From Escherichia coli (lineage in GTDB: Bacteria > Pseudomonadota > Gammaproteobacteria > Enterobacterales > Enterobacteriaceae), in NCBI RefSeq assembly GCF_001677475.2, contig NZ_CP015229.1: DNA of 64,000 nucleotides. One strand, written 5' to 3'. Shown in pieces: positions 5,853 to 64,000 of this stretch. Positions within the stretch are counted from its first letter, which is position 1; each line of letters begins with the position of its first letter. The position numbers were made by a program, and so were the translations under genes. A model generated the notes under the pieces. It was not told where the DNA came from. It was given only the letters and a program-made list of their open reading frames with translations, and did not search any database.

Positions 5853-5859
5853 CATAATA

Positions 5860-37761: not shown

Positions 37762-39018
37762 ATGCTCCATCCGCGAGCCAGAACCATGTTGTTATTATCG
37801 CTCCCCGCCGTGGCAATTGGGATTGCGTCCAGTCTTATTCTGATTGTGGTGATGAAAATCGCCTCGGTATTACAGAATTTGCTCTGGCAACGACTGCCGG
37901 GAACTCTGGGGATAGCCCAGGATTCACCTTTCTGGATCATCGCCATATTAACGCTAACAGGTATTGCGGTGGGGTTGGTTATCCGTTTCAGCCAGGGGCA
38001 TGCTGGACCAGACCCCGCCTGTGAACCGCTGATCGGCGCACCGGTTCCGCCCTCTGCGCTACCAGGACTTATCGTAGCATTAATTCTCGGTCTTGCTGGC
38101 GGCGTCAGCCTGGGGCCGGAACATCCGATCATGACCGTCAATATCGCCCTTGCCGTCGCCATTGGCGCTCGTCTGTTACCGCGCGTCAACCGAATGGAGT
38201 GGACTATTTTAGCCTCTGCCGGAACCATCGGCGCGCTGTTTGGCACACCTGTTGCGGCGGCGTTGATATTTTCGCAAACCTTAAATGGCAGTAATGAAGT
38301 GCCGCTATGGGATCGACTCTTTGCGCCGTTAATGGCAGCGGCGGCTGGTGCGCTGACGACAAGTCTATTTTTCCACCCCCATTTTTCGCTGCCCATTGCG
38401 CATTACGGACAGATGCAGATGGCAGACATTATCAGCGGTGCGATTGTAGCGGCGATTGCCATCGCTGCGGGGATGGTCGCCGTATGGTGTCTGCCACGGT
38501 TGCACGCAATGATGCATCAGATTAAAAACCCTGTGCTTATGCTCGGGGTTGGCGGGTTTATTCTCGGTATTTTGGGGGTTATTGGTGGGCCGGTTTCACT
38601 GTTTAAAGGGCTGGATGAGATGCAGCAAATGGTGATGAATCAGGCTTTCAGCACCAGTGATTACTTTTTACTGGCGGTGATTAAGCTCGCCGCTCTGGTC
38701 ATTGCCGCCGCCAGCGGGTTTCGTGGCGGGCGAATCTTCCCGGCAGTGTTTGTTGGCGTGGCGTTAGGTTTGATGCTACATGAACACGTTCCCGCAGTCC
38801 CGGCGGCAATTACTGTCTCCTGCGCTATTCTCGGTATGGTACTGGTGGTAACGCGCGATGGCTGGTTAAGCCTGTTTATGGCGGCAGTCGTTGTACCTGA
38901 TACCAATCTGCTACCGCTACTTTGTATCGTTATGCTTCCGGCATGGCTATTGCTGGCTGGCAAACCGATGATGATTGTGAATCGCCCGAAGCAGCAACCA
39001 CCCCACGATAATCTTTAG
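37762..39018 (+). CDS. yfeO: ClC-family voltage-gated chloride channel-like membrane protein
   Basis: 418-aa polytopic ORF with ClC-like GxxxGPxxP motifs (GVSLGPEHP). Confidence 0.85.
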
Positions 39019-39132
39019 CAAAAAATGCTCTCCATCATGATTTAAGAGTTATGGCGATGAAACGGGGCTTTACCTCCCCGTAATATTGCGTTAACAGGCC
39101 GCTGACGGCTTCGATCGTGAAGGAGAATATCA

Positions 39133-39459
39133 ATGTTCAGGTCACTGTTTCTGGCGGCCGCCCTGATGGCTTTTACCCCGCTTGCGGCAAACGCAGGTGA
39201 AATTACCCTACTGCCATCAATCAAATTACAAATTGGCGATCGCGATCATTACGGTAATTACTGGGACGGTGGTCATTGGCGCGACCGTGATTACTGGCAT
39301 CGTAATTACGAATGGCGTAAAAACCGCTGGTGGCGTCACGATAATGGCTACCACCGTGGCTGGGATAAGCGTAAAGCGTATGAGCGTGGCTATCGTGAAG
39401 GCTGGCGCGACCGTGATGATCATCGAGGGAAAGGCCGTGGACACGGACATCGTCATTAA
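39133..39459 (+). CDS. ypeC: Secreted low-complexity protein (DUF2502), rich in Trp/Arg/His/Asp/Gly
   Basis: 108-aa ORF with signal peptide [21 protein letters not shown] followed by repeats such as [34 protein letters not shown]. Confidence 0.75.
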
Positions 39460-39482
39460 ACACATCCACCAATGGAGCACGA

Positions 39483-39575
<93 letters not shown>

Positions 39576-39600
39576 TGTGCCTGGTACGACGCCAGTTGAA

Positions 39601-40848
<1,248 letters not shown>

Positions 40849-41174: not shown

Positions 41175-42377
41175 ATGGACCGCGTCCTTCATTTTGTACT
41201 GGCACTTGCCGTTGTTGCGATTCTCGCACTGCTGGTAAGCAGCGACCGCAAAAAAATTCGTATCCGTTATGTTATTCAACTGCTTGTTATCGAAGTGTTA
41301 CTGGCGTGGTTCTTCCTGAACTCCGACGTTGGTTTGGGCTTCGTGAAAGGCTTCTCCGAAATGTTCGAAAAACTGCTCGGATTTGCCAACGAAGGGACTA
41401 ACTTCGTCTTTGGTAGCATGAATGATCAAGGCCTGGCATTCTTCTTCCTGAAAGTGCTGTGCCCAATCGTCTTTATCTCTGCACTGATCGGTATTCTCCA
41501 GCACATTCGCGTGTTGCCGGTGATTATCCGCGCAATTGGTTTCCTGCTCTCCAAAGTCAACGGTATGGGCAAACTGGAATCCTTTAACGCCGTCAGCTCC
41601 CTGATTCTGGGTCAGTCTGAAAACTTTATTGCCTATAAAGATATCCTTGGCAAAATCTCCCGTAACCGTATGTACACCATGGCAGCAACGGCGATGTCCA
41701 CCGTTTCTATGTCCATCGTTGGTGCATACATGACCATGCTGGAGCCGAAATATGTCGTTGCAGCGCTGGTACTGAATATGTTCAGCACATTTATCGTGCT
41801 GTCGCTGATCAACCCGTACCGTGTTGATGCCAGTGAAGAAAACATTCAGATGTCCAACCTGCACGAAGGTCAGAGCTTCTTCGAAATGCTGGGTGAATAC
41901 ATTCTGGCAGGTTTCAAAGTTGCCATTATCGTTGCCGCAATGCTGATCGGCTTTATCGCCCTGATCGCGGCGCTGAACGCACTGTTTGCCACCGTGACTG
42001 GCTGGTTTGGCTACAGCATCTCCTTCCAGGGCATCCTGGGCTACATCTTCTATCCGATTGCATGGGTGATGGGTGTTCCGTCCAGCGAAGCACTGCAGGT
42101 GGGCAGTATCATGGCGACCAAACTGGTTTCCAACGAGTTCGTTGCGATGATGGATCTGCAGAAAATTGCTTCCACGCTCTCTCCGCGTGCTGAAGGCATC
42201 ATCTCTGTGTTCCTGGTTTCCTTCGCTAACTTCTCTTCAATCGGGATTATCGCAGGTGCAGTTAAAGGCCTGAATGAAGAGCAAGGTAACGTGGTTTCTC
42301 GCTTCGGTCTGAAGCTGGTTTACGGCTCTACCCTGGTGAGTGTGCTGTCTGCGTCAATCGCAGCACTGGTGCTGTAA
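41175..42377 (+). CDS. nupC: Nucleoside:H+ symporter (CNT family)
   Basis: Start placed at [14 protein letters not shown] (400 aa); track ORF starts 39 nt upstream. Confidence 0.9.
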
Positions 42378-42388
42378 GCACCATACAT

Positions 42389-42420
42389 AAAAAAGCCGGG
42401 GATAATTCCCCGGCTTTTTT
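42389..42420. terminator. Bidirectional intrinsic terminator between convergent nupC and pdeA (AAAAAGCCGGGG-ATAA-TTCCCCGGCTTTTTT)
   Basis: Perfect GC-rich stem flanked by A-run and T-run. Confidence 0.7.
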
Positions 42421-42427
42421 ACGCCTG

Positions 42428-44617
42428 TTAATCAGCTAATGGCTGCGGGCGACCAATCAGATACCCTTGCAGATATTGCACCCCGAGCTTATGCAATAGC
42501 GCCTGTTGCTGTTGCGTCTCGACAAACTCCGCGACCACACTCAATGACTTCGCTTTCGCCAGATCGGTAATTGATCTCACAATCATCGCATCCAGCGTGT
42601 TCGTGACAATATCTTTCACAAAGACGCCATCAATTTTGATGATATCAGCCTGCAAACGCTTTAACCGTTCGTAGTTGGCATATCCGGTGCCAAAGTCATC
42701 AATCGCAATCCGGAAACCAAACTTATGCAGCTGCTCGATGTTGTACATGCTGCTTTCTGCGTTAGAAAACGCCTGCTCCTCGGTGATCTCAAGAATGACC
42801 GCCTGCGGGGAGATGTGATAACGCTTAAACAGACGAATAATCCGCCCGGCAATATTCTTTTGCAGCAGCGTGAGCGGCATTAAATTGACTGAAAAGCGCG
42901 GTCCTTTTTTGTCGCAAGGGTGTGTTGCCAGCCACTTCAACAAGGATTCCAGCACTTGCAAATCAAAACGCGCGCTAAGGTTAAACTGAGCAATAAGGGG
43001 CAGAAACTTATCCGGGGTCATAATGCCGCCGTCATACTTCAGTCGCGCGAGGATCTCATCATAACCTTCACCCTCTTTGTTGCGAATTGGCTGGGCGTAG
43101 AGCAGCAAATCACCCTGATCTAACGCCGTGCGAATGGTATTCAGCAATAGCACCTGTTTAGTGGTCTGCCCGGAAACCATCTCCTCTCTGCTATCCAGCG
43201 CCAGCACATGATGATGTGCACAGGATTGCTCCGCCAGCCAGCTTAACTGCCCCAACAAGGGTTGCAGGGTTTCCTGATTTCCATCAAAACGCCCCCAGGC
43301 AGCACCATAGCCCATATCCAGCCCGGTATTGTTCCAGTGAATTTGCCGACTATTCAGGATGTTAACCATATGCTGGAGTCGTCCTTCCGTTTCCGGTCCG
43401 CTCAGCACTAACAGCAGTTCACTACCCGGCAATTGATACAACTTTTCGTTTTCCTGCATCAACGGCAGCAGCGTACGGTAAATTGAGCGGATACAGTGAA
43501 CGCGCATCATTAACCCGTAATGACGACTCATAAACTCAAGATTATCAATGCGCAGGCAGCAAAAACTCTTGCCCGCCTCTTGCTCCGGCGCTTGTTCTAA
43601 CGCACGAAAGTTGGGTAGGAGCGTTAACGGATCGGTCAGCGCCTGCAAATGCCAGCGGCGATTAAGCCATTCACTGCGATGATAAATGCGCACCATATAG
43701 AGCAGGCAAACGCTAAAGGAAATCAGCACCGCAAGAATAAATGCCAGCGAATATTCGGTTTCCACCCCTTGCAAAAAGTTCTGGTTGTAATTCAGCAGGC
43801 AAAGCGTTGAAACAGCCCAGGTGAGATTTAAAAACGGATAGCGAAGCTTACCGACCCCGAGGGTAAAGATGATGAAGAAAACGGGTACCAGGTAACCGGC
43901 AATAAAGTCGTTTTCATAAGGTGTGCACAACAGAAGTAGCAGCACGCTTAACGCTGCCAGCCAGCTTAAGGTAAATGCGCGTTTCTCTTTGCCCAACGAC
44001 GGAGCGATATCCCTGCGCCACAATATCTGCGCAAAGTGGGGACTTACAATCATGCGAGTGAGATAGTAGAAAAGCATGTTGTAAATCAGCACAGCGGTGA
44101 AAAGGCTTAGCAAATCAACGACCGTGAAAATGGCATCCGCATCGCCGAAAAAGGTGGATATCTTTAGCGGGAAATCAAAGAAGCTCCCCACAAGATACAT
44201 GCTGCATTTGATGCCGATCGGCGTCACCAAACCAAGCCAGAACAGACGTTGCCAGACATATCGGCTGGTCAATCCATAACGCCAACGCGTCCCCAGCTGC
44301 CAGCGTAATATTGCGCAGGCACACAACACGACAAACGTCTGGCTGCCGAGCATGACCGCAGTCTGTAAAAAAGAGAGATGAAAGTTCCACAGATTGGTGC
44401 AAAACATCCCGCATAAAACGGGAACGACACCGCGCCAGCCAAAGATAAACAAGATTGATAGCATTACGCACAGTGGCATCCACGCCAGAAAGATATAACT
44501 GGAATGGATAATGGCAAGTGGCGAAATAAAACGGGATAGCTGAATAAGTACCACGGTGAGCGTAAACGCTAGTGTGAATATCTTGATATTTTTTATCAGG
44601 TTATGCTCCACAAACAT
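42428..44617 (-). CDS. pdeA: c-di-GMP phosphodiesterase (MASE1 membrane sensor, degenerate GGDEF, EAL)
   Basis: Start placed at MFVEHNLIKNIK (about 729 aa); C-terminal EAL domain motifs (EITE, DDFGTGY). Confidence 0.85.
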   Translation of the reverse strand: MFVEHNLIKNIKIFTLAFTLTVVLIQLSRFISPLAIIHSSYIFLAWMPLCVMLSILFIFGWRGVVPVLCGMFCTNLWNFHLSFLQTAVMLGSQTFVVLCACAILRWQLGTRWRYGLTSRYVWQRLFWLGLVTPIGIKCSMYLVGSFFDFPLKISTFFGDADAIFTVVDLLSLFTAVLIYNMLFYYLTRMIVSPHFAQILWRRDIAPSLGKEKRAFTLSWLAALSVLLLLLCTPYENDFIAGYLVPVFFIIFTLGVGKLRYPFLNLTWAVSTLCLLNYNQNFLQGVETEYSLAFILAVLISFSVCLLYMVRIYHRSEWLNRRWHLQALTDPLTLLPNFRALEQAPEQEAGKSFCCLRIDNLEFMSRHYGLMMRVHCIRSIYRTLLPLMQENEKLYQLPGSELLLVLSGPETEGRLQHMVNILNSRQIHWNNTGLDMGYGAAWGRFDGNQETLQPLLGQLSWLAEQSCAHHHVLALDSREEMVSGQTTKQVLLLNTIRTALDQGDLLLYAQPIRNKEGEGYDEILARLKYDGGIMTPDKFLPLIAQFNLSARFDLQVLESLLKWLATHPCDKKGPRFSVNLMPLTLLQKNIAGRIIRLFKRYHISPQAVILEITEEQAFSNAESSMYNIEQLHKFGFRIAIDDFGTGYANYERLKRLQADIIKIDGVFVKDIVTNTLDAMIVRSITDLAKAKSLSVVAEFVETQQQQALLHKLGVQYLQGYLIGRPQPLAD

Positions 44618-45924: not shown

Positions 45925-47340
45925 TTACTGCTGATTTTCGCGTTCAGCAATAAAGGCCAGCGCTTTGTTGATACGCTCAATGCTACGTGTCTTACCGATC
46001 GCGTGAACGGTAACATCCAGTGCTGGAGACTGCCCCGCACCGGTTACGGCGACACGCAGCGGCATACCAACTTTACCCATACCCACTTCCAACTCATCCG
46101 CCGTCGCCTGAATAGCGTGATGAACGTTTTCAGCGGTCCAGTCAGTAATCGCGGCCAGTTTGTCACGAACCACTTCCAGCGGCTGACGCGCTACCGGACG
46201 CAGATGTTTTTTCGCGGCGTCGGCATCGAACTCTGCAAAATCTTCGTAGAAATAACGGCAGCTCTGTGCCATCTCTTTCAGCGTCTTGCAGCGTTCGCCC
46301 AGCAGTTTCACCAGATCAGCCAGCTGCGGGCCGTTACGGGTATCGATATTTTCCTGCTCAATGTGCCACTGTAAGTGAGTAGCAACATACTCCGGCGGCA
46401 GCGCGTTAATGTAGTGATGGTTCAGCCACAGCAACTTGTCGGTGTTGAACGCACTGGCAGATTTGCTGACGGCATTCAAAGTGAAGTATTTGATCATCTC
46501 TTCACGAGTGAAGATTTCCTGATCGCCGTGGGACCAGCCCAGACGCACCAGATAGTTCAGCAGTGCTTCTGGCAAATAACCGTCATCACGGTACTGCATT
46601 ACGCTGACCGCCCCGTGACGTTTGGACAGTTTTTTACCGTCATCGCCGTTGATCATAGAAACGTGCGCGTAAACCGGCACCGGCGCTTTCAGGGCTTTAA
46701 GAATGTTGATCTGGCGCGGCGTGTTGTTGATATGGTCTTCGCCACGGATAACATGGGTGATTTCCATATCCCAGTCATCAACAACCACACAGAAGTTATA
46801 GGTTGGGGAACCATCGGTACGGCGAATGATCAGATCATCCAGCTCCTGGTTGCTGAACTCAATCGGGCCACGGATCTGATCGTCAAAAACAACAGAACCT
46901 TCCTGCGGGTTAGCAAAACGTACAACGCACGGTTCATCATCAGCATGATGCTCATGGCTGTGGCGGCAGCGACCGTCATAACGCGGCTTCTCACCTTTCG
47001 CCATTTGTTCTTCGCGCAGCGCTTCCAGGCGCTCTTTAGAGCAATAGCATTTATAAGCAGTGCCCTCTTCCAGCATCTGATCGATCACCGCGTTGTAGCG
47101 ATCAAAACGTTTGGTCTGGAAGTACGGACCTTCATCCCACTCCAGGCTCAGCCAGTTCATGCCATCCATAATGGCTTCGATAGCTTCCGGCGTGGAACGC
47201 TCAAGATCGGTGTCTTCAATACGCAGCACGAACTCACCGCCGTGGTTACGTGCAAAAAGCCAGGAGTAAAGAGCAGTACGCGCGCCGCCAACGTGCAGAT
47301 AGCCTGTTGGGCTTGGCGCGAAGCGAGTTTTGATTTTCAT
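45925..47340 (-). CDS. gltX: Glutamyl-tRNA synthetase
   Basis: 471-aa class I aaRS with HVGG-type motif ([17 protein letters not shown]) and KMSKS-like KLSKR. Confidence 0.9.
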
Positions 47341-47553
47341 GAAATGGCCTTACGTTTAGAAAGATGCCGACAACCGGCAAATCCTGGAAAAATTGAGTGG
47401 GCGATATTCTATCACTCCCGCCTGATTCCTCAATGTAGTTCGGGTTTCTACCTTAAGCATTATTGTTTTCGTTGACAAATTGCGCAACACGGTCTGTTTT
47501 GCGATCATCTTGCTTAAATTTACGACGAACGAACAATTTCTTTAGAAAATGCG

Positions 47554-47581
47554 TTGACTCATTTTGAACTCTCCCTATAAT
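47554..47581 (+). promoter_or_regulatory. Sigma70-type promoter for the tRNA-Val/Lys operon (-35 TTGACT, 16-bp spacer, -10 TATAAT, GC-rich discriminator)
   Basis: Consensus hexamers read directly, about 18 bp upstream of the first tRNA-Val. Confidence 0.6.
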
Positions 47582-47598
47582 GCGACTCCACACAGCGG

Positions 47599-47674
47599 GG
47601 GTGATTAGCTCAGCTGGGAGAGCACCTCCCTTACAAGGAGGGGGTCGGCGGTTCGATCCCGTCATCACCCACCA
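47599..47674 (+). tRNA. valU: tRNA-Val (anticodon UAC), copy 1
   Basis: 76-nt GGGTGATTAGCTCAGCTGGGAGAGCACCTCCCTTACAAGGAGGGGGTCGGCGGTTCGATCCCGTCATCACCCACCA. Confidence 0.9.
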
Positions 47675-47718
47675 ACTACTTTATGTAGTCTCCGCCGTGT
47701 AGCAAGAAATTGAGAAGT

Positions 47719-47794
47719 GGGTGATTAGCTCAGCTGGGAGAGCACCTCCCTTACAAGGAGGGGGTCGGCGGTTCGATCCCGTCATCACCCACCA
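47719..47794 (+). tRNA. valX: tRNA-Val (anticodon UAC), copy 2
   Basis: Identical 76-nt sequence to copy 1, separated by a 44-bp spacer. Confidence 0.9.
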
Positions 47795-47798
47795 CTTC

Positions 47799-47874
47799 GG
47801 GTCGTTAGCTCAGTTGGTAGAGCAGTTGACTTTTAATCAATTGGTCGCAGGTTCGAATCCTGCACGACCCACCA
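47799..47874 (+). tRNA. lysV: tRNA-Lys (anticodon UUU)
   Basis: GGGTCGTTAGCTCAGTTGGTAGAGCAGTTGACTTTTAATCAATTGGTCGCAGGTTCGAATCCTGCACGACCCACCA. Confidence 0.9.
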
Positions 47875-47878
47875 ATGT

Positions 47879-47906
47879 AAAAAAGCGCCCTAAAGGCGCT
47901 TTTTTG
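47879..47906. terminator. Intrinsic terminator after tRNA operon (AAAAAAGCGCC-CTAA-AGGCGCTTTTTT), bidirectional with xapR
   Basis: Perfect stem with flanking A/T runs. Confidence 0.7.
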
Positions 47907-47982
47907 CTATCTGCGATTTGCGAAATTGCCTGATGCGCTTCACTTAGCAGACTACTATTTCCGGCAATTCCTGTCTCCTCAC

Positions 47983-48867
47983 CTACTGTGTCAATGCAGC
48001 CAACAGCTTAACCATCGCGGGCGTCACCTGCTGTGTTTCATAAACAATATATAAATCTGCAGGGATGCGCTGTTTGAGCGGACGGAAAATGACACCTGGC
48101 CAGTTCATTTGTGCGTAGCTGTCCGCTATCAATGTGATACCAATGCCCATACTGACCATGGCGAGTACCGTTTGCGGTTCATTAACTTCGCGAATAACAA
48201 CCGGTGAAAATCCCACCTGCTGGCAAACTCGCTGCAAAAAATCCCAGTCAGTGTACACGGGCGGCATTGTAACAAAATACTCGTCACGTAGCGCTTCCAG
48301 CGGGACGGTGGAAAATGATGAGAAATGATGCTCTTCAGGCATCGCCACCAGAAACGCCGATTCATGCAACCGTAAGCTGGTAAAACCTGCAGGTGGTTCT
48401 GTTGCCATTCGCCAGATACCGGCATCGAGTTCACGTCGTTCCAGCAGGGTCATTTGCATCGCGGGCATCTTTTCGCGAAAAAGAACGTCAACGTTAGGAT
48501 TTTCCCTGAGGAATCGCCGCATAACCGGGCGCATCCGTCCCCACATTGCCGTTCCCACTACGCCGAGTTCAATCCGCCCTGCTTCTCCCCGACCTATTTG
48601 TTCAACCCGAGCCAATACATTATTAGCATTCACCAGCAATCGACGCGATTCTTCCATCAAGATTTTGCCCGCGTGTGTCAGTACGACGCTGCGCGAATGG
48701 CGAATAAAAAGCTGCGTGCCGAGTTGATTTTCCAGCTCTTTAATATGAATACTGAGCGGAGGCTGAGACATATTTAAACGCGCTGCTGCGCGACCAAAAT
48801 GCAACTCTTCCGCTACGGCAAGAAAATAACGGAGCAACTTAAGATCTGTTCTGTATACGCGTTCCAT
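47983..48867 (-). CDS. xapR: LysR-family activator of xanthosine operon
   Basis: Start placed at MERVYRTDLKLLRYF (about 294 aa); N-terminal LysR HTH. Confidence 0.85.
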   Translation of the reverse strand: MERVYRTDLKLLRYFLAVAEELHFGRAAARLNMSQPPLSIHIKELENQLGTQLFIRHSRSVVLTHAGKILMEESRRLLVNANNVLARVEQIGRGEAGRIELGVVGTAMWGRMRPVMRRFLRENPNVDVLFREKMPAMQMTLLERRELDAGIWRMATEPPAGFTSLRLHESAFLVAMPEEHHFSSFSTVPLEALRDEYFVTMPPVYTDWDFLQRVCQQVGFSPVVIREVNEPQTVLAMVSMGIGITLIADSYAQMNWPGVIFRPLKQRIPADLYIVYETQQVTPAMVKLLAALTQ

Positions 48868-48907
48868 AATTAAGTGCTCCATATAATAAATACATCGTAT
48901 TAAATTA

Positions 48908-49069
48908 TCATGGCATAAAGTATTTCACCACCAGATATCCGACATACATAAACACAATGGATAATATACCTGGTAATACATTTGGTACAGGAATAGGCAA
49001 GCGCACGATTGTAAACAAAGCACCAATGCCAAAACCAACGCCGGAAGAAAATAAAATATCTTTCACTAA
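48908..49069 (-). CDS. Candidate small hydrophobic protein (53 codons, GTG start), unannotated
   Basis: Minus-strand ORF VKDILFSSGVGFGIGALFTIVRLPIPVPNVLPGILSIVFMYVGYLVVKYFMP with AAGG Shine-Dalgarno-like sequence about 8 nt upstream; two predicted hydrophobic segments; not in ORF track (no ATG). Confidence 0.25.
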   Translation of the reverse strand, partial: LVKDILFSSGVGFGIGALFTIVRLPIPVPNVLPGILSIVFMYVGYLVVKYFMP

Positions 49070-49118
49070 TTAACCTTTATCATAAAAGCAGCTCTGAAGA
49101 GCAGAGCTGCGAATCCTT

Positions 49119-50375
49119 TTAATGAGCCACCGCTCGATGCTTTATCTTTTCAGGGTCATGATTATATTTAAACCCAAAGAAAAATATCACTGCGAGAAAA
49201 AGAGCATATCCTGCAAACACCAGCCAGATAGTTTGCCAGTCTTTTACGCCATCCACCGAAAAGTAATCTACTGCCATACCGCTCAGAATCGAGCCAATCC
49301 ATGCGCCGACACCATTTACCATGGTCATAAAGAGCCCCTGCGCGCTGGCACGAATGCTGGAATCAACTTCCTGTTCGACAAATACCGAACCAGAAATATT
49401 GAAGAAATCGAATGCACAGCCATAAACAATCATCGACAGCAGCAGCAAAATAAATCCGGTTGTTGACGGATCGCCATAGGCGAAGAAGCCAAAGCGCAGC
49501 GTCCAGGCCACCATACTCATCAGCATGACGGTTTTAATTCCAAATCGCTTTAAAAAGAATGGGATAGTCAGTATAAAGCCCACTTCTGCCATCTGTGAAA
49601 CCGACAGTAAAATGGAGGGATATTTCACCACAAAACTGTCAGCAAACTCCGGGTTACGGGCGAAATCATGTAGGAACGGATTACCAAAAACGTTGGTAAT
49701 TTGCAGTACCGCACCCAGCATCATGGCAAAGAGGAAAAAGATGGCCATGCGTGGATTTTTAAACAGCACGAAGGCATCCAGACCCAGCTTGCTGGCAAGC
49801 GATGTGGTCGTTTTTTTCTCCGCAACCGGAATCTTCGGCAAAGTCAGCGCATAAGCCGACAGCAGCAATGACGCACCGGACGCGATATACAGCTGCAGAC
49901 TACTCAATTCCAGATGCAGCAGGCTTACTGCCCACATCGCGACAATGAACCCCACCGTACCAAAAACGCGAATGGGCGGGAAAGCGGTCACCGGGTCAAG
50001 CCCTGCCTGGGCAAGACAGGAATAAGAGACGCTGTTCGATAACGCAATAGTCGGCATAAACGCCATCGCATTGACTAACATCACCCAAAACATCATATCC
50101 GGATCAGTTACGGATGCCGCATAAAAAAGTACGCCCGCACACACCAGGTGACATAGCATGTATGCACGTTCTGCGCGCAGCCATTTGTCTGCGATGATCC
50201 CCATTATACCAGGCATAATAATCGCGGCGATCCCTTTGGAACTGTAAACCATGCCAACATTAGCGCCGGTGAAATGAAGGGTATTAATCATGTAAGAACC
50301 GAGGGTAACCAGCCAGCTCCCCCAGATAAAATATTGCAAAAAGGACATTACCTTTAAGCGCAAAGCGATGCTCAT
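49119..50375 (-). CDS. xapB: Xanthosine:H+ symporter (MFS nucleoside permease)
   Basis: 418-aa MFS ORF. Confidence 0.9.
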   Translation of the reverse strand: MSIALRLKVMSFLQYFIWGSWLVTLGSYMINTLHFTGANVGMVYSSKGIAAIIMPGIMGIIADKWLRAERAYMLCHLVCAGVLFYAASVTDPDMMFWVMLVNAMAFMPTIALSNSVSYSCLAQAGLDPVTAFPPIRVFGTVGFIVAMWAVSLLHLELSSLQLYIASGASLLLSAYALTLPKIPVAEKKTTTSLASKLGLDAFVLFKNPRMAIFFLFAMMLGAVLQITNVFGNPFLHDFARNPEFADSFVVKYPSILLSVSQMAEVGFILTIPFFLKRFGIKTVMLMSMVAWTLRFGFFAYGDPSTTGFILLLLSMIVYGCAFDFFNISGSVFVEQEVDSSIRASAQGLFMTMVNGVGAWIGSILSGMAVDYFSVDGVKDWQTIWLVFAGYALFLAVIFFFGFKYNHDPEKIKHRAVAH

Positions 50376-50435
50376 AATCGTTTCCTTGTCGCATCATATG
50401 GCCTCACTCAGTGAGGCCGTTTATTGTTGTTTTAC

Positions 50436-51269
50436 TCAGGCAATTTTGCGCAGAAAGCCGCAAATAAGATTAATAAAGTTTTGCTTTGAGAGTTCCGCTG
50501 CTGCCAGCGTTTGGGCATGAGAAAGCTTCACGTCACTCAGACCTTCCGCCATGTTGGTAATCGCAGAGACCGCAACGACTTTAAGGTCGCAATGGCGAGC
50601 TGAAATAACCTCAGGCACCACAGACATACCAACAACATCCCCACCAATAATTTGCATCATGCGAATTTCCGCCGCAGTCTCGAAATTCGGCCCCGGATAC
50701 GAGACGAACACGCCCTCCGTCAGAGAGAAACCCTCTTCTTTTGCCACTTTTTGTAACAGTGCGCGGTATTCCGCATCGTAGGCATTTGCCAGTGAGAAGA
50801 AACGCTCGCCAAAACGATCATCGTTAAGACCCACCATCGGCGTACCTGGCATGGCGTTGATATGATCTTTCAATGCGACCAGGCTGCCTGCCCCCACTTC
50901 CGGACGCAGCGAGCCTGCCGCATTGGTGCAGAACAGTAGCTCGCAGCCCAGCAGCTTAAAGGTACGAATTGCGTCAGTCATAATGGTCATTCCACGACCT
51001 TCGTAGAAATGTCCGCGACCTTTCATACATACCACCGGTACGCCCTGGAGATGGCCCAGCACTAACTCCCCCGCATGACCATGTACCGTACTTACCGGGA
51101 AGCCCGGCAGCTTTTCGTAGGAAATTGCGACAGCGTTCTCAATCTGATCGGCCAGCGCGCCCAGCCCGGAACCTAAAATAAAGGCCACTCGTGGCGTGAA
51201 ATCAGGTTTATAAGTCTTGATAATATCTATGCAAAACAGCGGGTTATGAGAAAATTGAACCTGAGGCAT
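50436..51269 (-). CDS. xapA: Xanthosine (purine nucleoside) phosphorylase II
   Basis: 277-aa PNP/MTAP family ORF. Confidence 0.9.
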   Translation of the reverse strand: MPQVQFSHNPLFCIDIIKTYKPDFTPRVAFILGSGLGALADQIENAVAISYEKLPGFPVSTVHGHAGELVLGHLQGVPVVCMKGRGHFYEGRGMTIMTDAIRTFKLLGCELLFCTNAAGSLRPEVGAGSLVALKDHINAMPGTPMVGLNDDRFGERFFSLANAYDAEYRALLQKVAKEEGFSLTEGVFVSYPGPNFETAAEIRMMQIIGGDVVGMSVVPEVISARHCDLKVVAVSAITNMAEGLSDVKLSHAQTLAAAELSKQNFINLICGFLRKIA

Positions 51270-51517
51270 ATATATCCTTTTTCTGTAGGGTGGAATCTAA
51301 CGCCTTTTTATAGCGAGGTTGTCCCGGCTCTTACCAATACACTTTTCTCACGCATTCAATAGCGATTCGATATCGATGGATTTATATCTTTTCTCTATTA
51401 ATCCACGGTAAAAACTGTATTGGCGATATTAATTCCTTTGCATTAACAATATGTCGTTTTTAGCAAACCACTTTATTAAGCAATCTACTAATAACGATCG
51501 GCATAGGGAATTATGCT

Positions 51518-52282
51518 ATGAAAAAACATCTTTTAACTCTGACACTTTCCTCTATATTAGCGATACCTGTTATATCTCATGCAGAATTTAAAGGCGGTTT
51601 TGCAGATATCGGCGTGCATTATCTGGACTGGACCAGCCGGACTACCGAAAAATCGTCGACCAAATCACACAAAGATGATTTTGGTTATCTTGAAATTGAA
51701 GGTGGCGCTAACTTTAGTTGGGGAGAAATGTACGGGTTCTTCGACTGGGAAAACTTCTATAACGGTCGCCATAATAAACCAGGTAGCGAGCAGCGTTATA
51801 CCTTTAAAAATACCAACCGTATTTACCTGGGTGACACCGGATTTAATCTTTACCTGCACACGTATGGCACCTACGGGTCTGCGAATCGTGTGAATTTCCA
51901 CGACGATATGTTCCTGTACGGTGTCGGCTACAATTTCACCGGCAGCGGTTGGTGGTTCAAACCGTTCTTTGCTAAGCGTTATACAGATCAAACCTATTAC
52001 ACTGGCGACAACGGCTATGTCGCCGGCTGGGTTGCAGGTTACAACTTTATGCTGGGCAGCGAGAAATTCACTCTTACCAACTGGAACGAGTACGAGTTTG
52101 ACCGTGACGCTACCTATGCAGCGGGTAATGGCGGTAAAGAAGGGCTGAATGGCGCAGTTGCACTGTGGTGGAATGCAACATCACACATCACTACGGGGAT
52201 TCAGTATCGATATGCGGATGACAAACTGGGCGAAGATTTTTACCAGGATGCGATAATCTACTCCATCAAATTTAACTTCTGA
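51518..52282 (+). CDS. yfeN: Putative outer-membrane beta-barrel protein
   Basis: 254-aa ORF with signal peptide and C-terminal aromatic residue (F); alternating-hydrophobic beta pattern. Confidence 0.75.
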   Translation: MKKHLLTLTLSSILAIPVISHAEFKGGFADIGVHYLDWTSRTTEKSSTKSHKDDFGYLEIEGGANFSWGEMYGFFDWENFYNGRHNKPGSEQRYTFKNTNRIYLGDTGFNLYLHTYGTYGSANRVNFHDDMFLYGVGYNFTGSGWWFKPFFAKRYTDQTYYTGDNGYVAGWVAGYNFMLGSEKFTLTNWNEYEFDRDATYAAGNGGKEGLNGAVALWWNATSHITTGIQYRYADDKLGEDFYQDAIIYSIKFNF

Positions 52283-52320
52283 TTGATTCCTGCCGGGGCT
52301 CCCGGCAGTATGAATTCACT

Positions 52321-53247
52321 CTATATCTGATACAACGGATCCCCTTCCCGCCCAGCCATTAGCGCATGGCCCTGGTCTCGTACCACGTCCCATAACGCTT
52401 GTGCGGCGGTGGAAAGTGAACGGTTCTTCCTGCGCACCAGCATCAACTGGCGTTCCACCACCGGCGTAATGCGCTTTACCACCAGCGGGCTACCTTCAGG
52501 TAACGGCAGCGCCAGTGCGGGAAGAATACTGATGCCGATGCCTGCGGCTACCATCGGGAACAGCGTCGCCGGATGTCCAATCTCCTGCACAATATTCGCC
52601 TGAATACCATTGCGCGCCAGCGCTGCGTCAATCAGCGGTCGGCTGCCTGACGCGTAATCCTGCAACACCAATTTCGCTCCCTGTAATGCCTGCCAGGGTA
52701 CATAATCTTCCACGGCCAAAGCGCTATCGCGATGGCAAAGCAGAAAGAAAGGCTCGGAAAGAATCGCTTCACATTGCAGATCGCCCACTGGGCCTGGATC
52801 GATGACGATGCCAAAGTCGACATCTCCCTGGCGAATACTTTCCATCACCCACTGCTGCGGACGATCGTGCAGGACAAACTGAATATCTGGATAGCGGCGA
52901 TGGCTTTCAGCAATGCATTGCGGAATAAGATGCGCGGAAATGGTCTGGCTGGCAGCGACGCGAACTTTTCCGCTCAGTTGTTGCCCCATACGCCCGGTAT
53001 CGCGCAACGTACTGTTAAGTTCATCCAGTAGTCGCTCAAGACGCAAAGCCAACTGCTGCCCTGCATCTGTAAGCACCACTTCACGCGTGGTTCTGTCCAG
53101 CAGGCGAACACCAGTATGATTTTCCAGCTCCTTCACACTGTGACTCACTGCCGACTGGCTCAGGCCGATACGCTCTCCTGCACGACTAAAACTTTTCTCC
53201 TGCGCTACTGTGACGAAAACCTTTAATTGTTTTAAAGAATAATTCAT
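52321..53247 (-). CDS. yfeR: LysR-family transcriptional regulator
   Basis: 308-aa ORF with N-terminal LysR HTH ([38 protein letters not shown]). Confidence 0.8.
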
Positions 53248-53336
53248 CTGTTTTCTTCATGAATGGATGCAATAAATCAATTTTATTTCTCAAACTGGAA
53301 GAAGCACAATAGAACCATCGATCATCTGGAGTCTTT

Positions 53337-54335
53337 ATGAAACTTTTTCGTATCCTCGATCCTTTCACCTTAACCCTGATCACGGTGGTGTTGCTGGCCT
53401 CTTTCTTTCCGGCCAGAGGCGATTTCGTCCCCTTCTTTGAAAATCTGACCACCGCAGCTATTGCCCTGCTGTTCTTTATGCACGGCGCGAAGTTGTCGCG
53501 TGAGGCGATTATTGCTGGCGGTGGTCACTGGCGACTGCATTTGTGGGTAATGTGCAGCACCTTCGTGCTGTTTCCGATTCTGGGTGTACTGTTTGCCTGG
53601 TGGAAACCGGTAAATGTCGACCCGATGCTCTACTCCGGTTTTCTCTACTTGTGCATTCTCCCCGCTACCGTGCAGTCTGCAATCGCCTTCACGTCAATGG
53701 CGGGCGGTAACGTCGCGGCGGCGGTTTGTTCTGCGTCAGCATCCAGCCTGCTGGGGATTTTCCTTTCGCCATTGCTGGTTGGCCTGGTGATGAATGTTCA
53801 CGGTGCAGGGGGCAGCCTTGAACAGGTCGGTAAAATTATGCTGCAACTGCTGCTGCCGTTTGTGTTGGGGCATCTTTCCCGGCCGTGGATTGGTGACTGG
53901 GTGTCGCGCAATAAAAAATGGATTGCGAAAACTGACCAGACGTCCATTCTGTTGGTGGTTTATACAGCGTTCAGCGAAGCCGTCGTTAATGGTATCTGGC
54001 ATAAAGTTGGCTGGGGATCATTGCTGTTTATCGTGGTGGTCAGCTGCGTTCTTCTGGCTATCGTGATTGTAGTTAACGTCTTTATGGCACGCCGACTGGG
54101 CTTCAATAAAGCAGATGAAATTACTATCGTCTTTTGTGGTTCGAAAAAGAGTCTGGCAAATGGCATCCCGATGGCAAACATTCTGTTCCCCACAGCGGTG
54201 ATCGGTATGATGGTGCTGCCCCTGATGATTTTCCATCAGATCCAATTGATGGTCTGTGCGGTGCTGGCGCGTCGATACAAACGCCAGACCGAACAGTTAC
54301 AGGCGCAGCAGAAAAGCCGCGCCAATAAAGCTTAA
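53337..54335 (+). CDS. yfeH: Bile acid:sodium symporter (BASS) family membrane protein
   Basis: 332-aa polytopic ORF. Confidence 0.8.
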   Translation: MKLFRILDPFTLTLITVVLLASFFPARGDFVPFFENLTTAAIALLFFMHGAKLSREAIIAGGGHWRLHLWVMCSTFVLFPILGVLFAWWKPVNVDPMLYSGFLYLCILPATVQSAIAFTSMAGGNVAAAVCSASASSLLGIFLSPLLVGLVMNVHGAGGSLEQVGKIMLQLLLPFVLGHLSRPWIGDWVSRNKKWIAKTDQTSILLVVYTAFSEAVVNGIWHKVGWGSLLFIVVVSCVLLAIVIVVNVFMARRLGFNKADEITIVFCGSKKSLANGIPMANILFPTAVIGMMVLPLMIFHQIQLMVCAVLARRYKRQTEQLQAQQKSRANKA

Positions 54336-54550
54336 AGCGGACGCTTCAGGGGCTGGACCAGTTGCGTCAGCCCCTCAGTTTTAATCAGCAGCGTGATTTG
54401 CATTAGCTCACCGAGCTTCCCTGCCGGGAACTCATCTTTGCGGGCAAACCACAGAAGATACTCCTCCGGCAGGTCGATTAAGCGACGCCCTTTGTATTTG
54501 CCAAACGGCATTATCGTATTGGCTATTTCAATCAGCTGCTCTTTTTCCAT
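54332..54550 (-). CDS. ypeB: Small DUF3820-type protein
   Basis: Start placed at MEKEQLIEIANTIMPFGKYKGRRLIDLPEEYLLWF (72 aa); track ORF is 5'-extended into ligA 3' end. Confidence 0.7.
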   Translation of the reverse strand: MEKEQLIEIANTIMPFGKYKGRRLIDLPEEYLLWFARKDEFPAGKLGELMQITLLIKTEGLTQLVQPLKRPL

Positions 54551-54551
54551 C

Positions 54552-56576
<2,025 letters not shown>

Positions 56577-56637
56577 TCAATGCTAAAAACCCCCGACAAG
56601 CGGGGGTTCGAAGAGGAGTTAATTTGCCTTAAGTGTA

Positions 56638-57636
56638 TCAGGCGTTGGCGTCTTTGACTTCGCGGATGATGTCCTGGTACTCGCGCAATTTCTGCGGAGT
56701 CATCATACGGCGCTGATCGTCAAGCACTACACCGCCCACTTCATCGGCAATATGCTGCGCAGATTGCAGCATCAGCTTGAAGTTCTGCAGCTCGTCACCG
56801 TAAGACGGTACCTGCATAAAGATAGTGACACCCGGAGTAGTGAAATCCTTCATTTCAGGATCAAAGGTTCCCGGTTTCACCATATTCGCCAGGCTAAATA
56901 ACGCCGGGCCGCTGCCATCCGGGCTAAGATGACGATGGTAAATATTCATATCGCCAAAAATGAAGCCCGCTTGTTGAATGCTGTTAAGAAGCAGTTCACC
57001 GTTTAGCTCGCTACCGTGATGCGCCGCGACGTTCATGATAATCACCGCTTCTTTGCGCTTCGGTTTATCCATAACTGGAGCCGGTTCCGCTACAGGCTCA
57101 GGCTGTGGTGCCGCTACAGGCTCTGCAGGCTGGAAAGCCTGTTGTGCCGGTTGCGGTGCTGAATGCACTGGCTGCGGCGCTGATGCGACCTGTGGCGAAA
57201 CTGGCTGCTGCAACGGCTGTTCAGGCTGCGGCTGATAGGCAGGCTGCTGCACGGGTTGCTGCACCGGCTGCGCTGGACGCGGAGCATGTTGCGGCGGTAC
57301 CTGCGCTTCAGGCGGCTGCTGGACCGGTTGACGCGGCTGTGCAGACGCATAAGGCGGTTGGTACTGGTGTTGCGGCGACGGACGAGCAGCCTCATGCTCC
57401 TGGGCGTTAGCCGGGGCATGATTCACGCGGTGAACACGAACCTCACCAACGCCCTCATCATCTTCGACATCCTCGTCATAAGAATCGTCGTCACGTTTTG
57501 ACTTCATTCGTTTTAATGGCCGATCGCGGAACATAGAAGATCGTTCTTTACGGCTGGTCCAGAAACCATGTACCAGTAAAGCGATTATGGCGATCGCGCC
57601 AACAATGATTAATATCAGACGCAAATCCTGCATCAT
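56638..57636 (-). CDS. zipA: Cell division protein ZipA (FtsZ membrane anchor)
   Basis: Start placed at [21 protein letters not shown]; N-terminal TM, P/Q-rich linker, C-terminal FtsZ-binding domain. Confidence 0.9.
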
Positions 57637-57865
57637 TATATTCTCTGTTGTTCTAACACCTTGCCACCACGGCAAACATTTACTCACTAAGAGTATTTGC
57701 CGATTACCTCAAGTGCAAGTGCACTATTAACTTTCACAGCACAAAGATAGATGAAATCGTGCTTTTTGCTGTTTTTTCGAACATATCCTAACTGTCCATT
57801 GCGCAATTACCCGGTAAAATACGCAGAATTTTCCTGGGATTGGTCAAAAGGAGCTCATCCTGATT

Positions 57866-58627
57866 ATGGTTTCATCATTCACATCTGCCCCACGCAGCGG
57901 TTTTTACTATTTTGCGCAAGGCTGGAAGCTCGTCTCGCAACCTGGGATTCGGCGTTTCGTTATTTTACCGCTGCTGGTCAATATTTTGTTGATGGGGGGC
58001 GCATTCTGGTGGCTCTTTACGCAACTCGATGTCTGGATCCCGACTCTCATGAGTTATGTTCCGGACTGGTTACAATGGCTGAGCTATCTGTTGTGGCCTC
58101 TGGCTGTCATCTCTGTGCTGTTAGTGTTTGGCTATTTCTTCTCAACGATTGCTAACTGGATTGCCGCTCCGTTCAATGGTTTATTGGCTGAACAACTGGA
58201 AGCACGATTGACTGGCGCTACACCGCCAGATACCGGGATTTTCGGTATCATGAAAGATGTGCCGCGAATCATGAAACGCGAATGGCAAAAATTTGCCTGG
58301 TATCTGCCGCGCGCAATTGTATTGCTAATTCTTTACTTCATCCCTGGTATTGGGCAAACCGTCGCGCCGGTACTGTGGTTCCTGTTTAGCGCCTGGATGT
58401 TAGCCATCCAGTATTGCGATTACCCCTTCGATAACCACAAAGTGCCGTTTAAAGAGATGCGCACCGCCCTGCGCACACGCAAAATCACCAATATGCAGTT
58501 TGGTGCTTTAACCAGTCTGTTTACGATGATCCCTCTGCTTAATCTGTTCATCATGCCCGTTGCCGTTTGTGGTGCGACGGCGATGTGGGTCGATTGCTAT
58601 CGCGATAAACACGCGATGTGGCGGTAA
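57866..58627 (+). CDS. cysZ: Sulfate transporter CysZ
   Basis: 253-aa polytopic membrane ORF. Confidence 0.9.
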
Positions 58628-58811
58628 CAATCTACCGGTTATTTTGTAAACCGCTTGTGTGAAACAGGGGTGGCTTATGCCGCCCCTTATTCCATCTTGC
58701 ATGTCATTATTTCCCTTCTGCATATAGATATGCTAAATCCTTACTTCCGCATATTCTCTGAGCGGGTATGCTACCTGTTGTATCCCAATTTCATACAGTT
58801 AAGGACAGGCC

Positions 58812-59783
58812 ATGAGTAAGATTTTTGAAGATAACTCGCTGACTATCGGTCACACGCCGCTAGTTCGCCTGAATCGCATCGGTAACGGACGCATTCTGGC
58901 GAAGGTGGAATCTCGTAACCCCAGCTTCAGCGTTAAGTGCCGTATCGGTGCCAACATGATTTGGGATGCCGAAAAACGCGGCGTGCTGAAACCAGGCGTT
59001 GAACTGGTTGAACCAACCAGCGGTAATACCGGGATTGCACTGGCCTATGTCGCTGCCGCTCGCGGTTACAAACTTACCCTGACCATGCCAGAAACCATGA
59101 GTATTGAACGCCGCAAGCTGCTGAAAGCGTTAGGTGCAAACCTGGTGCTGACCGAAGGTGCTAAAGGCATGAAAGGCGCAATCCAAAAAGCAGAAGAAAT
59201 TGTCGCCAGCAATCCAGATAAATACCTTCTGCTGCAACAATTCAGCAATCCGGCAAACCCTGAAATTCACGAAAAAACCACCGGTCCGGAGATCTGGGAA
59301 GATACCGACGGTCAGGTTGATGTATTTATTGCTGGCGTTGGCACTGGCGGTACGCTGACCGGCGTCAGCCGCTACATTAAAGGCACCAAAGGCAAGACCG
59401 ATCTTATCTCTGTCGCCGTTGAGCCAACCGATTCTCCAGTTATCGCCCAGGCACTGGCTGGTGAAGAGATTAAACCTGGCCCGCATAAAATTCAGGGTAT
59501 TGGCGCTGGTTTTATCCCGGCTAACCTCGATCTCAAGCTGGTCGATAAAGTCATTGGCATCACCAATGAAGAAGCGATTTCTACCGCGCGTCGTCTGATG
59601 GAAGAAGAAGGTATTCTTGCAGGTATCTCTTCTGGAGCAGCTGTTGCTGCGGCGTTGAAACTACAAGAAGATGAAAGCTTTACCAACAAGAATATTGTGG
59701 TTATTCTACCATCATCGGGTGAGCGTTATTTAAGCACCGCATTGTTTGCCGATCTCTTCACTGAGAAAGAATTGCAACAGTAA
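58812..59783 (+). CDS. cysK: Cysteine synthase A (O-acetylserine sulfhydrylase)
   Basis: 323-aa ORF with PLP-lysine motif (SVKCRIG) and GTGGT loop. Confidence 0.95.
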
Positions 59784-59804
59784 TGCCAGCTTGTTAAAAA
59801 TGCG

Positions 59805-59832
59805 TAAAAAAGCACCTTTTCAGGTGCTTTTT
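59805..59832 (+). terminator. Intrinsic terminator after cysK (AAAAAAGCACC-TTTTCA-GGTGCTTTTTTG)
   Basis: Perfect stem followed by T-run. Confidence 0.7.
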
Positions 59833-60166
59833 TGTGGCCTGCTTCAAACTTTCGCCCCTCCTGGCATTGATTCAGCCTGTCGGAACTGGTATTTAACCAG
59901 ACTAATTATTTTGATGCGCGAAATTAATCGTTACAGGAAAAGCCAAAGCTGAATCGATTTTATGATTTGGTTCAATTCTTCCTTTAGCGGCATAATGTTT
60001 AATGACGTACGAAACGTCAGCGGTCAACACCCGCCAGCAATGGACTGTATTGCGCTCTTCGTGCGTCGCGTCTGTTAAAAACTGGCGCGAACAATACAGG
60101 CTAAAGTCGAACCGCCAGGCTAGACTTTAGTTCCACAACACTAAACCTATAAGTTGGGGAAATACA

Positions 60167-60424
60167 ATGTTCCAGCAAGAAGTTACCATTACCGCTCCGA
60201 ACGGTCTGCACACCCGCCCTGCTGCCCAGTTTGTAAAAGAAGCTAAGGGCTTCACTTCTGAAATTACTGTGACTTCCAACGGCAAAACCGCCAGCGCGAA
60301 AAGCCTGTTTAAACTGCAGACTCTGGGCCTGACTCAAGGTACCGTTGTGACTATCTCCGCAGAAGGCGAAGACGAGCAGAAAGCGGTTGAACATCTGGTT
60401 AAACTGATGGCGGAACTCGAGTAA
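60167..60424 (+). CDS. ptsH: PTS phosphocarrier protein HPr
   Basis: 85-aa [23 protein letters not shown]..., active-site His15 context. Confidence 0.95.
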
Positions 60425-60468
60425 TTTCCCGGGTTCTTTTAAAAATCAGTCACAAGTAAGGTAGGGTT

Positions 60469-62196
60469 ATGATTTCAGGCATTTTAGCATCCCCGGGTAT
60501 CGCTTTCGGTAAAGCTCTGCTTCTGAAAGAAGACGAAATTGTCATTGACCGGAAAAAAATTTCTGCCGACCAGGTTGATCAGGAAGTTGAACGTTTTCTG
60601 AGCGGTCGTGCCAAGGCATCAGCCCAGCTGGAAACGATCAAAACGAAAGCTGGTGAAACGTTCGGTGAAGAAAAAGAAGCCATCTTTGAAGGGCATATTA
60701 TGCTGCTCGAAGATGAGGAGCTGGAGCAGGAAATCATAGCCCTGATTAAAGATAAGCACATGACAGCTGACGCAGCTGCTCATGAAGTTATCGAAGGTCA
60801 GGCTTCTGCCCTGGAAGAGCTGGATGATGAATACCTGAAAGAACGTGCGGCTGACGTACGTGATATCGGTAAGCGCCTGCTGCGCAACATCCTGGGCCTG
60901 AAGATTATCGACCTGAGCGCCATCCAGGATGAAGTCATTCTGGTTGCCGCTGACCTGACGCCGTCCGAAACCGCACAGCTGAACCTGAAGAAGGTGCTGG
61001 GTTTCATCACCGACGCGGGTGGCCGTACTTCCCACACCTCTATCATGGCGCGTTCTCTGGAACTACCTGCTATCGTGGGTACCGGTAGCGTCACCTCTCA
61101 GGTGAAAAATGACGACTATCTGATTCTGGATGCCGTAAATAATCAGGTTTACGTCAATCCAACCAACGAAGTTATTGATAAAATGCGCGCTGTTCAGGAG
61201 CAAGTGGCTTCTGAAAAAGCAGAGCTTGCTAAACTGAAAGATCTGCCAGCTATTACGCTGGACGGTCACCAGGTAGAAGTATGCGCTAACATTGGTACGG
61301 TTCGTGACGTTGAAGGTGCAGAGCGTAACGGCGCTGAAGGCGTTGGTCTGTATCGTACTGAGTTCCTGTTCATGGACCGCGACGCGCTGCCCACTGAAGA
61401 AGAACAGTTTGCTGCTTACAAAGCAGTGGCTGAAGCGTGTGGCTCGCAGGCGGTTATCGTTCGTACCATGGACATCGGCGGCGACAAAGAGCTGCCATAC
61501 ATGAACTTCCCGAAAGAAGAGAACCCGTTCCTCGGCTGGCGCGCTATCCGTATCGCGATGGATCGTAAAGAGATCCTGCGCGATCAGCTCCGCGCTATCC
61601 TGCGTGCCTCGGCTTTCGGTAAATTGCGCATTATGTTCCCGATGATCATCTCTGTTGAAGAAGTGCGTGCACTGCGCAAAGAGATCGAAATCTACAAACA
61701 GGAACTGCGCGACGAAGGTAAAGCGTTTGACGAGTCAATTGAAATCGGCGTAATGGTGGAAACACCGGCTGCCGCAACAATTGCACGTCATTTAGCCAAA
61801 GAAGTTGATTTCTTTAGTATCGGCACCAATGATTTAACGCAGTACACTCTGGCAGTTGACCGTGGTAATGATATGATTTCACACCTTTACCAGCCAATGT
61901 CACCGTCCGTGCTGAACTTGATCAAGCAAGTTATTGATGCTTCTCATGCTGAAGGCAAATGGACTGGCATGTGTGGTGAGCTTGCTGGCGATGAACGTGC
62001 TACACTTCTGTTGCTGGGGATGGGTCTGGACGAATTCTCTATGAGCGCCATTTCTATCCCGCGCATTAAGAAGATTATCCGTAACACGAACTTCGAAGAT
62101 GCGAAGGTGTTAGCAGAGCAGGCTCTTGCTCAACCGACAACGGACGAGTTAATGACGCTGGTTAACAAGTTCATTGAAGAAAAAACAATCTGCTAA
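60469..62196 (+). CDS. ptsI: PTS enzyme I (phosphoenolpyruvate-protein phosphotransferase)
   Basis: 575-aa ORF with [21 protein letters not shown] phospho-His region. Confidence 0.95.
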
Positions 62197-62236
62197 TCCA
62201 CGAGATGCGGCCCAATTTACTGCTTAGGAGAAGATC

Positions 62237-62746
62237 ATGGGTTTGTTCGATAAACTGAAATCTCTGGTTTCCGACGACAAGAAGGATACCGGAACTATTG
62301 AGATCATTGCTCCGCTCTCTGGCGAGATCGTCAATATCGAAGACGTGCCGGATGTCGTTTTTGCGGAAAAAATCGTTGGTGATGGCATTGCTATCAAACC
62401 AACTGGAAACAAAATGGTCGCGCCTGTAGACGGCACCATTGGTAAAATCTTTGAAACCAACCACGCGTTCTCTATCGAATCTGATAGCGGCGTTGAACTG
62501 TTCGTCCACTTCGGTATCGACACCGTTGAACTGAAAGGCGAAGGCTTCAAGCGTATTGCTGAAGAAGGTCAGCGCGTGAAAGTTGGCGATACTGTCATTG
62601 AATTCGATCTGCCGCTGCTGGAAGAGAAAGCCAAGTCTACCCTGACTCCGGTTGTTATCTCCAACATGGACGAAATCAAAGAACTGATCAAACTGTCCGG
62701 TAGCGTGACTGTGGGTGAAACCCCGGTTATCCGCATCAAGAAGTAA
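62237..62746 (+). CDS. crr: PTS glucose-specific EIIA (EIIA-Glc)
   Basis: 169-aa [39 protein letters not shown]... Confidence 0.95.
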
Positions 62747-62769
62747 TTCTTGCCGCAGTGAAAAATGGC

Positions 62770-63639: not shown

Positions 63640-63652
63640 TTAATTTTTTCTC

Positions 63653-64000
<348 letters not shown>

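Follow-up and report, generated by a model that had tools for sequence, protein, structure and literature searches.

Two kinds of described systems are closest to the nupC–pdeA spacer analysed here. The first is the bidirectional terminators that lie between convergent genes. As described in the SEnd-seq work of Ju et al. (2019), many of these elements in E. coli are weak on their own and depend on collisions between polymerases; some bidirectional elements of this organism are described as working mainly as pause sites for the colliding polymerases. The second is the insertion sites of IS186, among them that of IS186C at this very locus in K-12 MG1655; the preferred target of IS186 is given as 5'-GGGG(N6/N7)CCCC (PMC6925257). 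At another of these sites, a hot spot within the promoter of lon, IS186 enters at one position and in either orientation (PMC3045373).

The spacer between nupC and pdeA shares features with both. Like the convergent-gene elements described by Ju et al. (2019), for example that of ynaJ-uspE, it has one shared stem-loop in a short spacer. That class, as described there, is unlike canonical intrinsic terminators and needs collisions, whereas the nupC–pdeA hairpin combines a strong G+C stem with a U6 tract in both directions, and by these features it looks like a two-way intrinsic terminator of the canonical type. It resembles the lon hot spot, as far as that site is described, in having the same target motif, one fixed insertion position and insertions in either orientation (PMC6925257, PMC3045373). 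The two sites differ in that the lon site is a promoter, where insertions are selectable owing to Lon deficiency, while the nupC–pdeA site is a putative terminator between two non-essential genes, and insertions into it are not known to cause a phenotype. We consider it very probable that the spacer is an intact, bidirectional, Rho-independent terminator common to nupC and pdeA, and that it is present here in the unoccupied, ancestral form of the site that holds IS186C in K-12.

The nupC–pdeA spacer and its hairpin

The window, i.e. the whole 64-kb stretch of E. coli DNA that was analysed, carries nupC and pdeA in convergent orientation (Table 1). Over residues 1–400, the translated NupC equals that of Escherichia orthologues (100% identity). 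The 729-aa PdeA protein is an exact match to a very common E. coli allele found on many NCBI genomes, and has the Pfam domains MASE1 and EAL. In thousands of E. coli genomes, the genes that match the window flanks are labelled nupC and pdeA, respectively, and from these matches the identities of both genes are regarded as secure. The pdeA stop codon (42428–42430) reads TTA on the + strand. The sequence-only reading had placed the two genes about 50 bp apart, with a single perfect hairpin and no insertion sequence between them. The ORF list gave exactly 50 bp with exact coordinates, the hairpin is a 34-nt palindrome, and a blastn search with IS186C as query found no IS186 sequence in the spacer or elsewhere in the whole 64-kb window.

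Table 1. Positions of the genes, the hairpin and the IS186 target in the window
Feature	Coordinates	Strand	Remarks and basis
nupC CDS, nucleoside:H+ symporter	41175..42377	+	400 codons and TAA stop (42375-42377); ORF list
nupC–pdeA intergenic spacer	42378..42427	.	50 bp, bounded by two convergent stop codons
Perfect 34-nt palindrome TAAAAAAGCCGGGGA-TAAT-TCCCCGGCTTTTTTA	42388..42421	.	Putative bidirectional intrinsic terminator; folds on both strands
A6 on the + strand, U-tract of the putative pdeA-direction terminator on the - strand	42389..42394	-	Sequence; minus-strand fold
G+C-rich core stem-loop GCCGGGGA / TAAT / TCCCCGGC	42395..42414	.	Sequence and fold
GGGGATAATTCCCC, unoccupied match to the IS186 target GGGG(N6/7)CCCC	42398..42411	.	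Sole match in the 64-kb window
GGATAATTCC, 10 bp duplicated around IS186C in K-12 and in other IS-bearing strains	42400..42409	.	K-12 junctions; ten further strains sampled
T6 run, U-tract of the putative nupC-direction terminator	42415..42420	+	Read from sequence
pdeA (yfeA) CDS, MASE1-EAL c-di-GMP phosphodiesterase	42428..44617	-	729 codons and stop; ORF list

The palindrome has the layout T-A6-GCCGGGGA-TAAT-TCCCCGGC-T6-A and is separated from the stop codons of nupC and pdeA by 10 nt and 6 nt, respectively. RNA folding of either strand yielded a perfect stem of 15 bp, whose G+C-rich core spans 8 bp, closed by a 4-nt loop. In 66-nt contexts, the fold energies were −27.1 kcal/mol (+ strand; z-score −6.0) and −32.5 kcal/mol (− strand; z-score −7.0), and of 200 shuffled sequences none folded equally well. 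A simple terminator scan reported the hairpin merely as a shortened 5-bp stem on the + strand; the full fold was used instead. Transcripts from either side would form one and the same G+C-rich hairpin with six U residues behind it, a combination that should release RNA polymerase just beyond each stop codon. At the DNA level the core of the hairpin, GGGG-ATAATT-CCCC, doubles as a consensus landing site for IS186. A weak promoter-like match (9 of 12 positions) was also seen inside the hairpin on the − strand; the number of such matches in the region is about that expected from shuffled sequence, and we attribute it to chance.

Conservation of the hairpin among Enterobacteriaceae

We compared at least 80 loci found with NupC, taking one genome per species; the end of nupC could be placed in 77 of them. 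In nearly all of these 77 loci the nupC stop codon is directly followed by an A-run, then a G+C-rich hairpin, then a T-run. Where a pdeA homologue is present, the distance between the two convergent stop codons is mostly 45–55 bp. The stem sequences themselves differ, for example GCCGGGC in Klebsiella, ACCGGGAGC in Enterobacter and GGGCCTGTAAC in Kluyvera. The locus of E. whittamii has a REP-like sequence downstream of its hairpin.

Covariation was counted by projecting the 15 base pairs of the window onto an alignment of 59 distinct sequences, and controls were obtained by sliding the partners by 1–3 columns. Standard pairs occupied 82% of the cells, compared to 47–67% with slid partners, and double-sided compensatory cells numbered 64 against 16–27 in the controls. 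The observed pairing or covariation score was not reached by any of 500 shuffles. RNAalifold predicted no pairs on the same 59-sequence alignment, since its consensus was disturbed by gaps in the variable loop, and the explicit helix count was used instead. The alignments indicate that a hairpin is kept at this position through compensatory change across about 60–77 species of Enterobacteriaceae.

The palindrome might also have a primary role other than termination: it might be a repeat of the REP/BIME type, a palindrome bound by a protein, or a piece of a small RNA from the 3'-UTR. Palindromes are indeed able to act as protein operators, and Rfam gave weak leader and sRNA matches over the hairpin. 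These matches all lie below threshold (the best has 31.6 bits, against a gathering score of 50), belong to models of unrelated families and cover the generic terminator stem alone. As the Rfam matches are all sub-threshold and terminator-like, no known RNA family was assigned to the hairpin. By direct reading, the REP consensus (GCCGGATG…-type) is absent from 42378–42427, and the hairpin sequence, including its core, occurs once in the window. Moreover, the stem sequence varies freely between species, while the pairing and the A/T tracts are retained, which fits a signal acting through RNA structure and not a sequence-specific protein site. A primarily non-terminator role is very unlikely in view of these observations. 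The stable G+C stem, the U-tracts on both strands, the convergent stop codons and the compensatory changes are all those of an intrinsic terminator, and termination is the most likely function of the hairpin as judged from sequence and covariation.

The IS186 site in its empty and occupied forms

The match to GGGG(N6/7)CCCC in the hairpin is not significant by itself because about one such match is expected by chance per 64 kb; its relevance comes from the insertions observed in other genomes. The sequence-only reading had placed an IS186 copy between nupC and pdeA in K-12 MG1655. This statement is borne out by the reference (NC_000913.3), where IS186C with insL3 (b2394) is annotated at 2514273–2515617, exactly between nupC (b2393) and pdeA (b2395). 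An IS-free junction in K-12 would have contradicted the sequence-only reading; the alignment instead revealed the insertion together with a 10-bp target duplication, GGATAATTCC. The K-12 junctions read AAAAAAGCCGG(GGATAATTCC)CATAAGCGC on the left and GCGCTTATG(GGATAATTCC)CCGGTTTTTTT on the right of the 1339-bp IS186, with the duplicates in parentheses. Hence, the insertion is in the middle of the hairpin; counting the terminal C and G as target would lengthen the duplication to 12 bp.

Deleting IS186 and one GGATAATTCC copy from the K-12 sequence restores the hairpin. The locus and hairpin are the same in both strains, and the K-12 site so reduced equals the window sequence except for two small differences. 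At the foot of the 3' arm of the hairpin K-12 has GGT where the window has GGC; the hairpin of the window is perfect (…CCCCGGCTTTTTT). After the nupC stop codon, the window is one base longer (TAAGCACC compared to TAAGACC in K-12). The site in the window has the features of an unoccupied target: it matches the consensus, it is occupied with a duplication in other genomes, and neither IS186 ends nor an IS186 transposase gene are present in the window. The other two copies of MG1655, IS186A and IS186B, are also in GGGG-N6-CCCC sites; a 10-bp GG-N6-CC duplication was found for IS186A, for which both junctions were read, and the left junction alone was read for IS186B. IS186A and IS186B adjoin the hok/sok toxin loci hokC and hokE.

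The empty state had been proposed to be ancestral, and the comparisons sustain this proposal. In the outgroups Escherichia sp. E1V33, Escherichia sp. MOD1-EC7003 and E. whittamii the core GGGGATAATTCCCC is uninterrupted (GCCGGGGATAATTCCCCGGC as in the window), and the hairpin is uninterrupted in every other enterobacterial genus sampled. Among the 5424 complete E. coli genomes with a match, the 1-kb region is uninterrupted in 4460 (82%). Natural isolates, for example NCTC11121 and SH19PTE6, have an empty site with flanks that are 100% identical to K-12 over 2 kb and differ by 1–3 SNPs over 6.5 kb. Empty sites on the K-12 flank haplotype mean that the IS186 insertion is younger than that haplotype. 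Because the outgroups and most E. coli are uninterrupted, and because empty sites occur on K-12-identical flanks, we take the empty site to be the ancestral state.

The same empty site could in principle be secondary, if an ancestor had carried IS186 and lost it by a precise excision that restored the perfect hairpin. A clean loss of the element and of one duplicate would leave no scar and be invisible in the sequence, and empty and occupied sites are found on near-identical flank haplotypes. Such a history is extremely improbable, given the uninterrupted sites of the outgroup Escherichia, of all Enterobacteriaceae sampled and of 82% of the E. coli genomes. In addition, IS186 is absent from the whole 64-kb window, and the window is about 260 SNPs per 6.5 kb away from every IS-bearing haplotype sampled.

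Occupied sites were counted with junction-specific queries among the complete E. coli genomes (n = 5426). IS186 in the K-12 orientation (+) was recovered in 477 genomes by its left junction and in 476 by its right junction, and the opposite orientation (−) in 465 genomes by either junction. The insertion point is identical for both orientations. Flank SNPs were compared at thirteen sampled loci. A K-12-like haplogroup includes IS186(+) in MG1655, IS186(−) in EA7 and JNQH498, and IS4 in 23CRST047, as well as empty sites. A second haplogroup, about 1% away, has IS186(+) in 510016 and IS186(−) in E1535. In a third one (ws5-3 and QA-1986 83), the hairpin that holds IS186(+) is the variant GGGGATCATTCCCC and both duplicates show the variant base; an empty copy of this variant allele was found in a further locus, L102. 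The presence of the variant base in both duplicates, together with the empty variant allele, requires a separate insertion. The haplogroups point to at least three independent IS186 insertions at this site, and probably more.

An alternative history is that the ~940 occupied genomes all descend from one ancient insertion, which was later flipped in place through recombination of the 23-bp inverted ends of IS186 and was spread between strains by homologous recombination; on this view the site marks a single origin cleanly and is not a hot spot. Consistent with this, the insertion point and the duplication are common to both orientations, the flanks of most occupied genomes equal K-12 over 2 kb, and one sampled strain, 2017-01-4CC, looks recombinant. 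A single origin is nevertheless unlikely, as ws5-3 and QA-1986 83 have the variant allele in both duplicates while L102 has it empty, each of two flank haplogroups that differ by about 1% contains both orientations, and entry at one position in either orientation is documented for IS186 at lon (PMC3045373).

Other elements were observed at the same locus. E. coli 23CRST047 (NZ_AP045820.1) has a full 1426-bp IS4 in the same hairpin with a 13-bp duplication, GGGGATAATTCCC, corresponding to window positions 42398–42410. The IS4 target is described as AAA-N20-TTT, a pattern that the perfect allele AAA-GCCGGGGATAATTCCCCGGC-TTT fits. In E. albertii NBRC 107761 an AT-rich element of ~1.55 kb (about 4222–5771 of the extracted locus) lies in the equivalent hairpin between nupC and pdeA. 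Its ends are IS4-like (28 of 28 bases on the right; 17 of 17 and about 87% of a further 83 on the left), and neither a transposase gene nor, for the largest ORF, a Pfam match was found; the element may be derived from IS4 and non-autonomous. E. coli MEI003 has an IS3-family element with a programmed frameshift (4046–5370 of its locus) a few bases past the nupC stop codon (near window position 42384), upstream of an intact hairpin and with an apparent 3-bp duplication, CCA. In E. coli 720632 the right IS186 duplicate has a C-to-T change (GGATAATTCT), and pdeA is also split by an ISKpn26-like IS5 element.

It is a tentative and rather doubtful possibility that IS4-family elements use the hairpin repeatedly as a natural landing pad, and that it is not a one-off K-12 site. 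The observations in its favour are the three or more entries of IS186 in both orientations, once into a variant allele, the IS4 copy of 23CRST047 and the IS4-like ends in E. albertii. If it were true, palindromic two-way terminators with a G4-N6-C4 core would be preferred targets, and each insertion would end termination for both genes and create overlapping convergent transcription of the kind reported for insL3-pdeA in MG1655.

Distance to K-12 and consequences of occupancy

The sequence-only reading had also suggested that the site could gauge how close the strain is to K-12. K-12 does differ at this position, but the marker is weak and its value was overstated, since the site is also empty on 2-kb flanks identical to those of K-12 and IS186 has entered it repeatedly. 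The presence of IS186 is homoplastic and its absence is common to most of the species, which makes the site a poor measure of closeness to K-12. As it was entered repeatedly and in both orientations, it is not a stand-alone lineage marker, and the presence or absence of IS186 here should not be used alone in that way. A direct SNP comparison is far more informative. Over the 35 kb left of the site the window is 97.3% identical to MG1655; the identity is 99.3% for pdeA and 98.6% beyond it on the right, and by these values the strain is judged not to be close to K-12. The best match among the 5426 complete E. coli genomes has about 97.5% identity over 30001–55000, 98.8% over 1–7100 and 98.5% over 46000–64000. 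The lineage of the window appears to be poorly represented among complete genomes and is possibly a cryptic clade; the window proteins that were checked are common E. coli alleles despite the low nucleotide identity.

Several other differences were observed. Window positions 1–7100 have no counterpart in the compared K-12 region, where K-12 carries the CPS-53 prophage; they match, at up to 98.8%, the csc genes for sucrose utilisation (cscA and genes for a transporter, a kinase and a LacI-type regulator) that lie beside yfdC in about 1400 E. coli genomes. Positions 38200–40000 (the 3' half of yfeO, ypeC and the 3' end of mntH) are 9–16% diverged from K-12, compared to 0.5–3% for their neighbours, which suggests that the segment was imported from an Escherichia lineage further removed. 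The xapABR genes lie to the right of gltX and a tRNA cluster, about 6 kb from the site, in K-12 and several strains; in 510016, QA-1986 83 and SMN197SH3 a direct junction to a flxA-like gene and yfeR takes their place. In E. coli ST2747, nupC is wholly missing, the region upstream of mntH is joined directly to the 3' end of pdeA, and pdeA is annotated as slightly longer (2214 bp).

An IS186 insertion would split the stem and leave both nupC and pdeA without their shared terminator in the IS-bearing strains. In K-12 the transposase gene of IS186C has the same orientation as nupC, and an RNA-seq survey of MG1655 lists insL3-pdeA and insL1-mokC among the convergent pairs with overlapping transcripts (PMC12288877). 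The insL3-pdeA overlap is consistent with the loss of the shared terminator; on its own it is circumstantial because reads from the three identical IS186 copies cannot be uniquely assigned.

Most of what is described here is already known, i.e. an ordinary conserved terminator and a K-12 IS186C polymorphism that is annotated in the reference genome. What is modestly new is solely that, in natural E. coli, the hairpin is a recurrent target of IS186 and has also been a target of IS4 and of an IS3-family element. Searching the literature for IS186 in combination with nupC returned nothing. The practical importance is small, as the window represents the normal state of a conserved putative terminator. 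It is K-12 that is atypical, in that its nupC and pdeA are without the shared putative terminator found in about 82% of complete E. coli genomes, and this state may have an influence on how 3' ends are formed, and on the antisense overlap at pdeA, in that reference strain.
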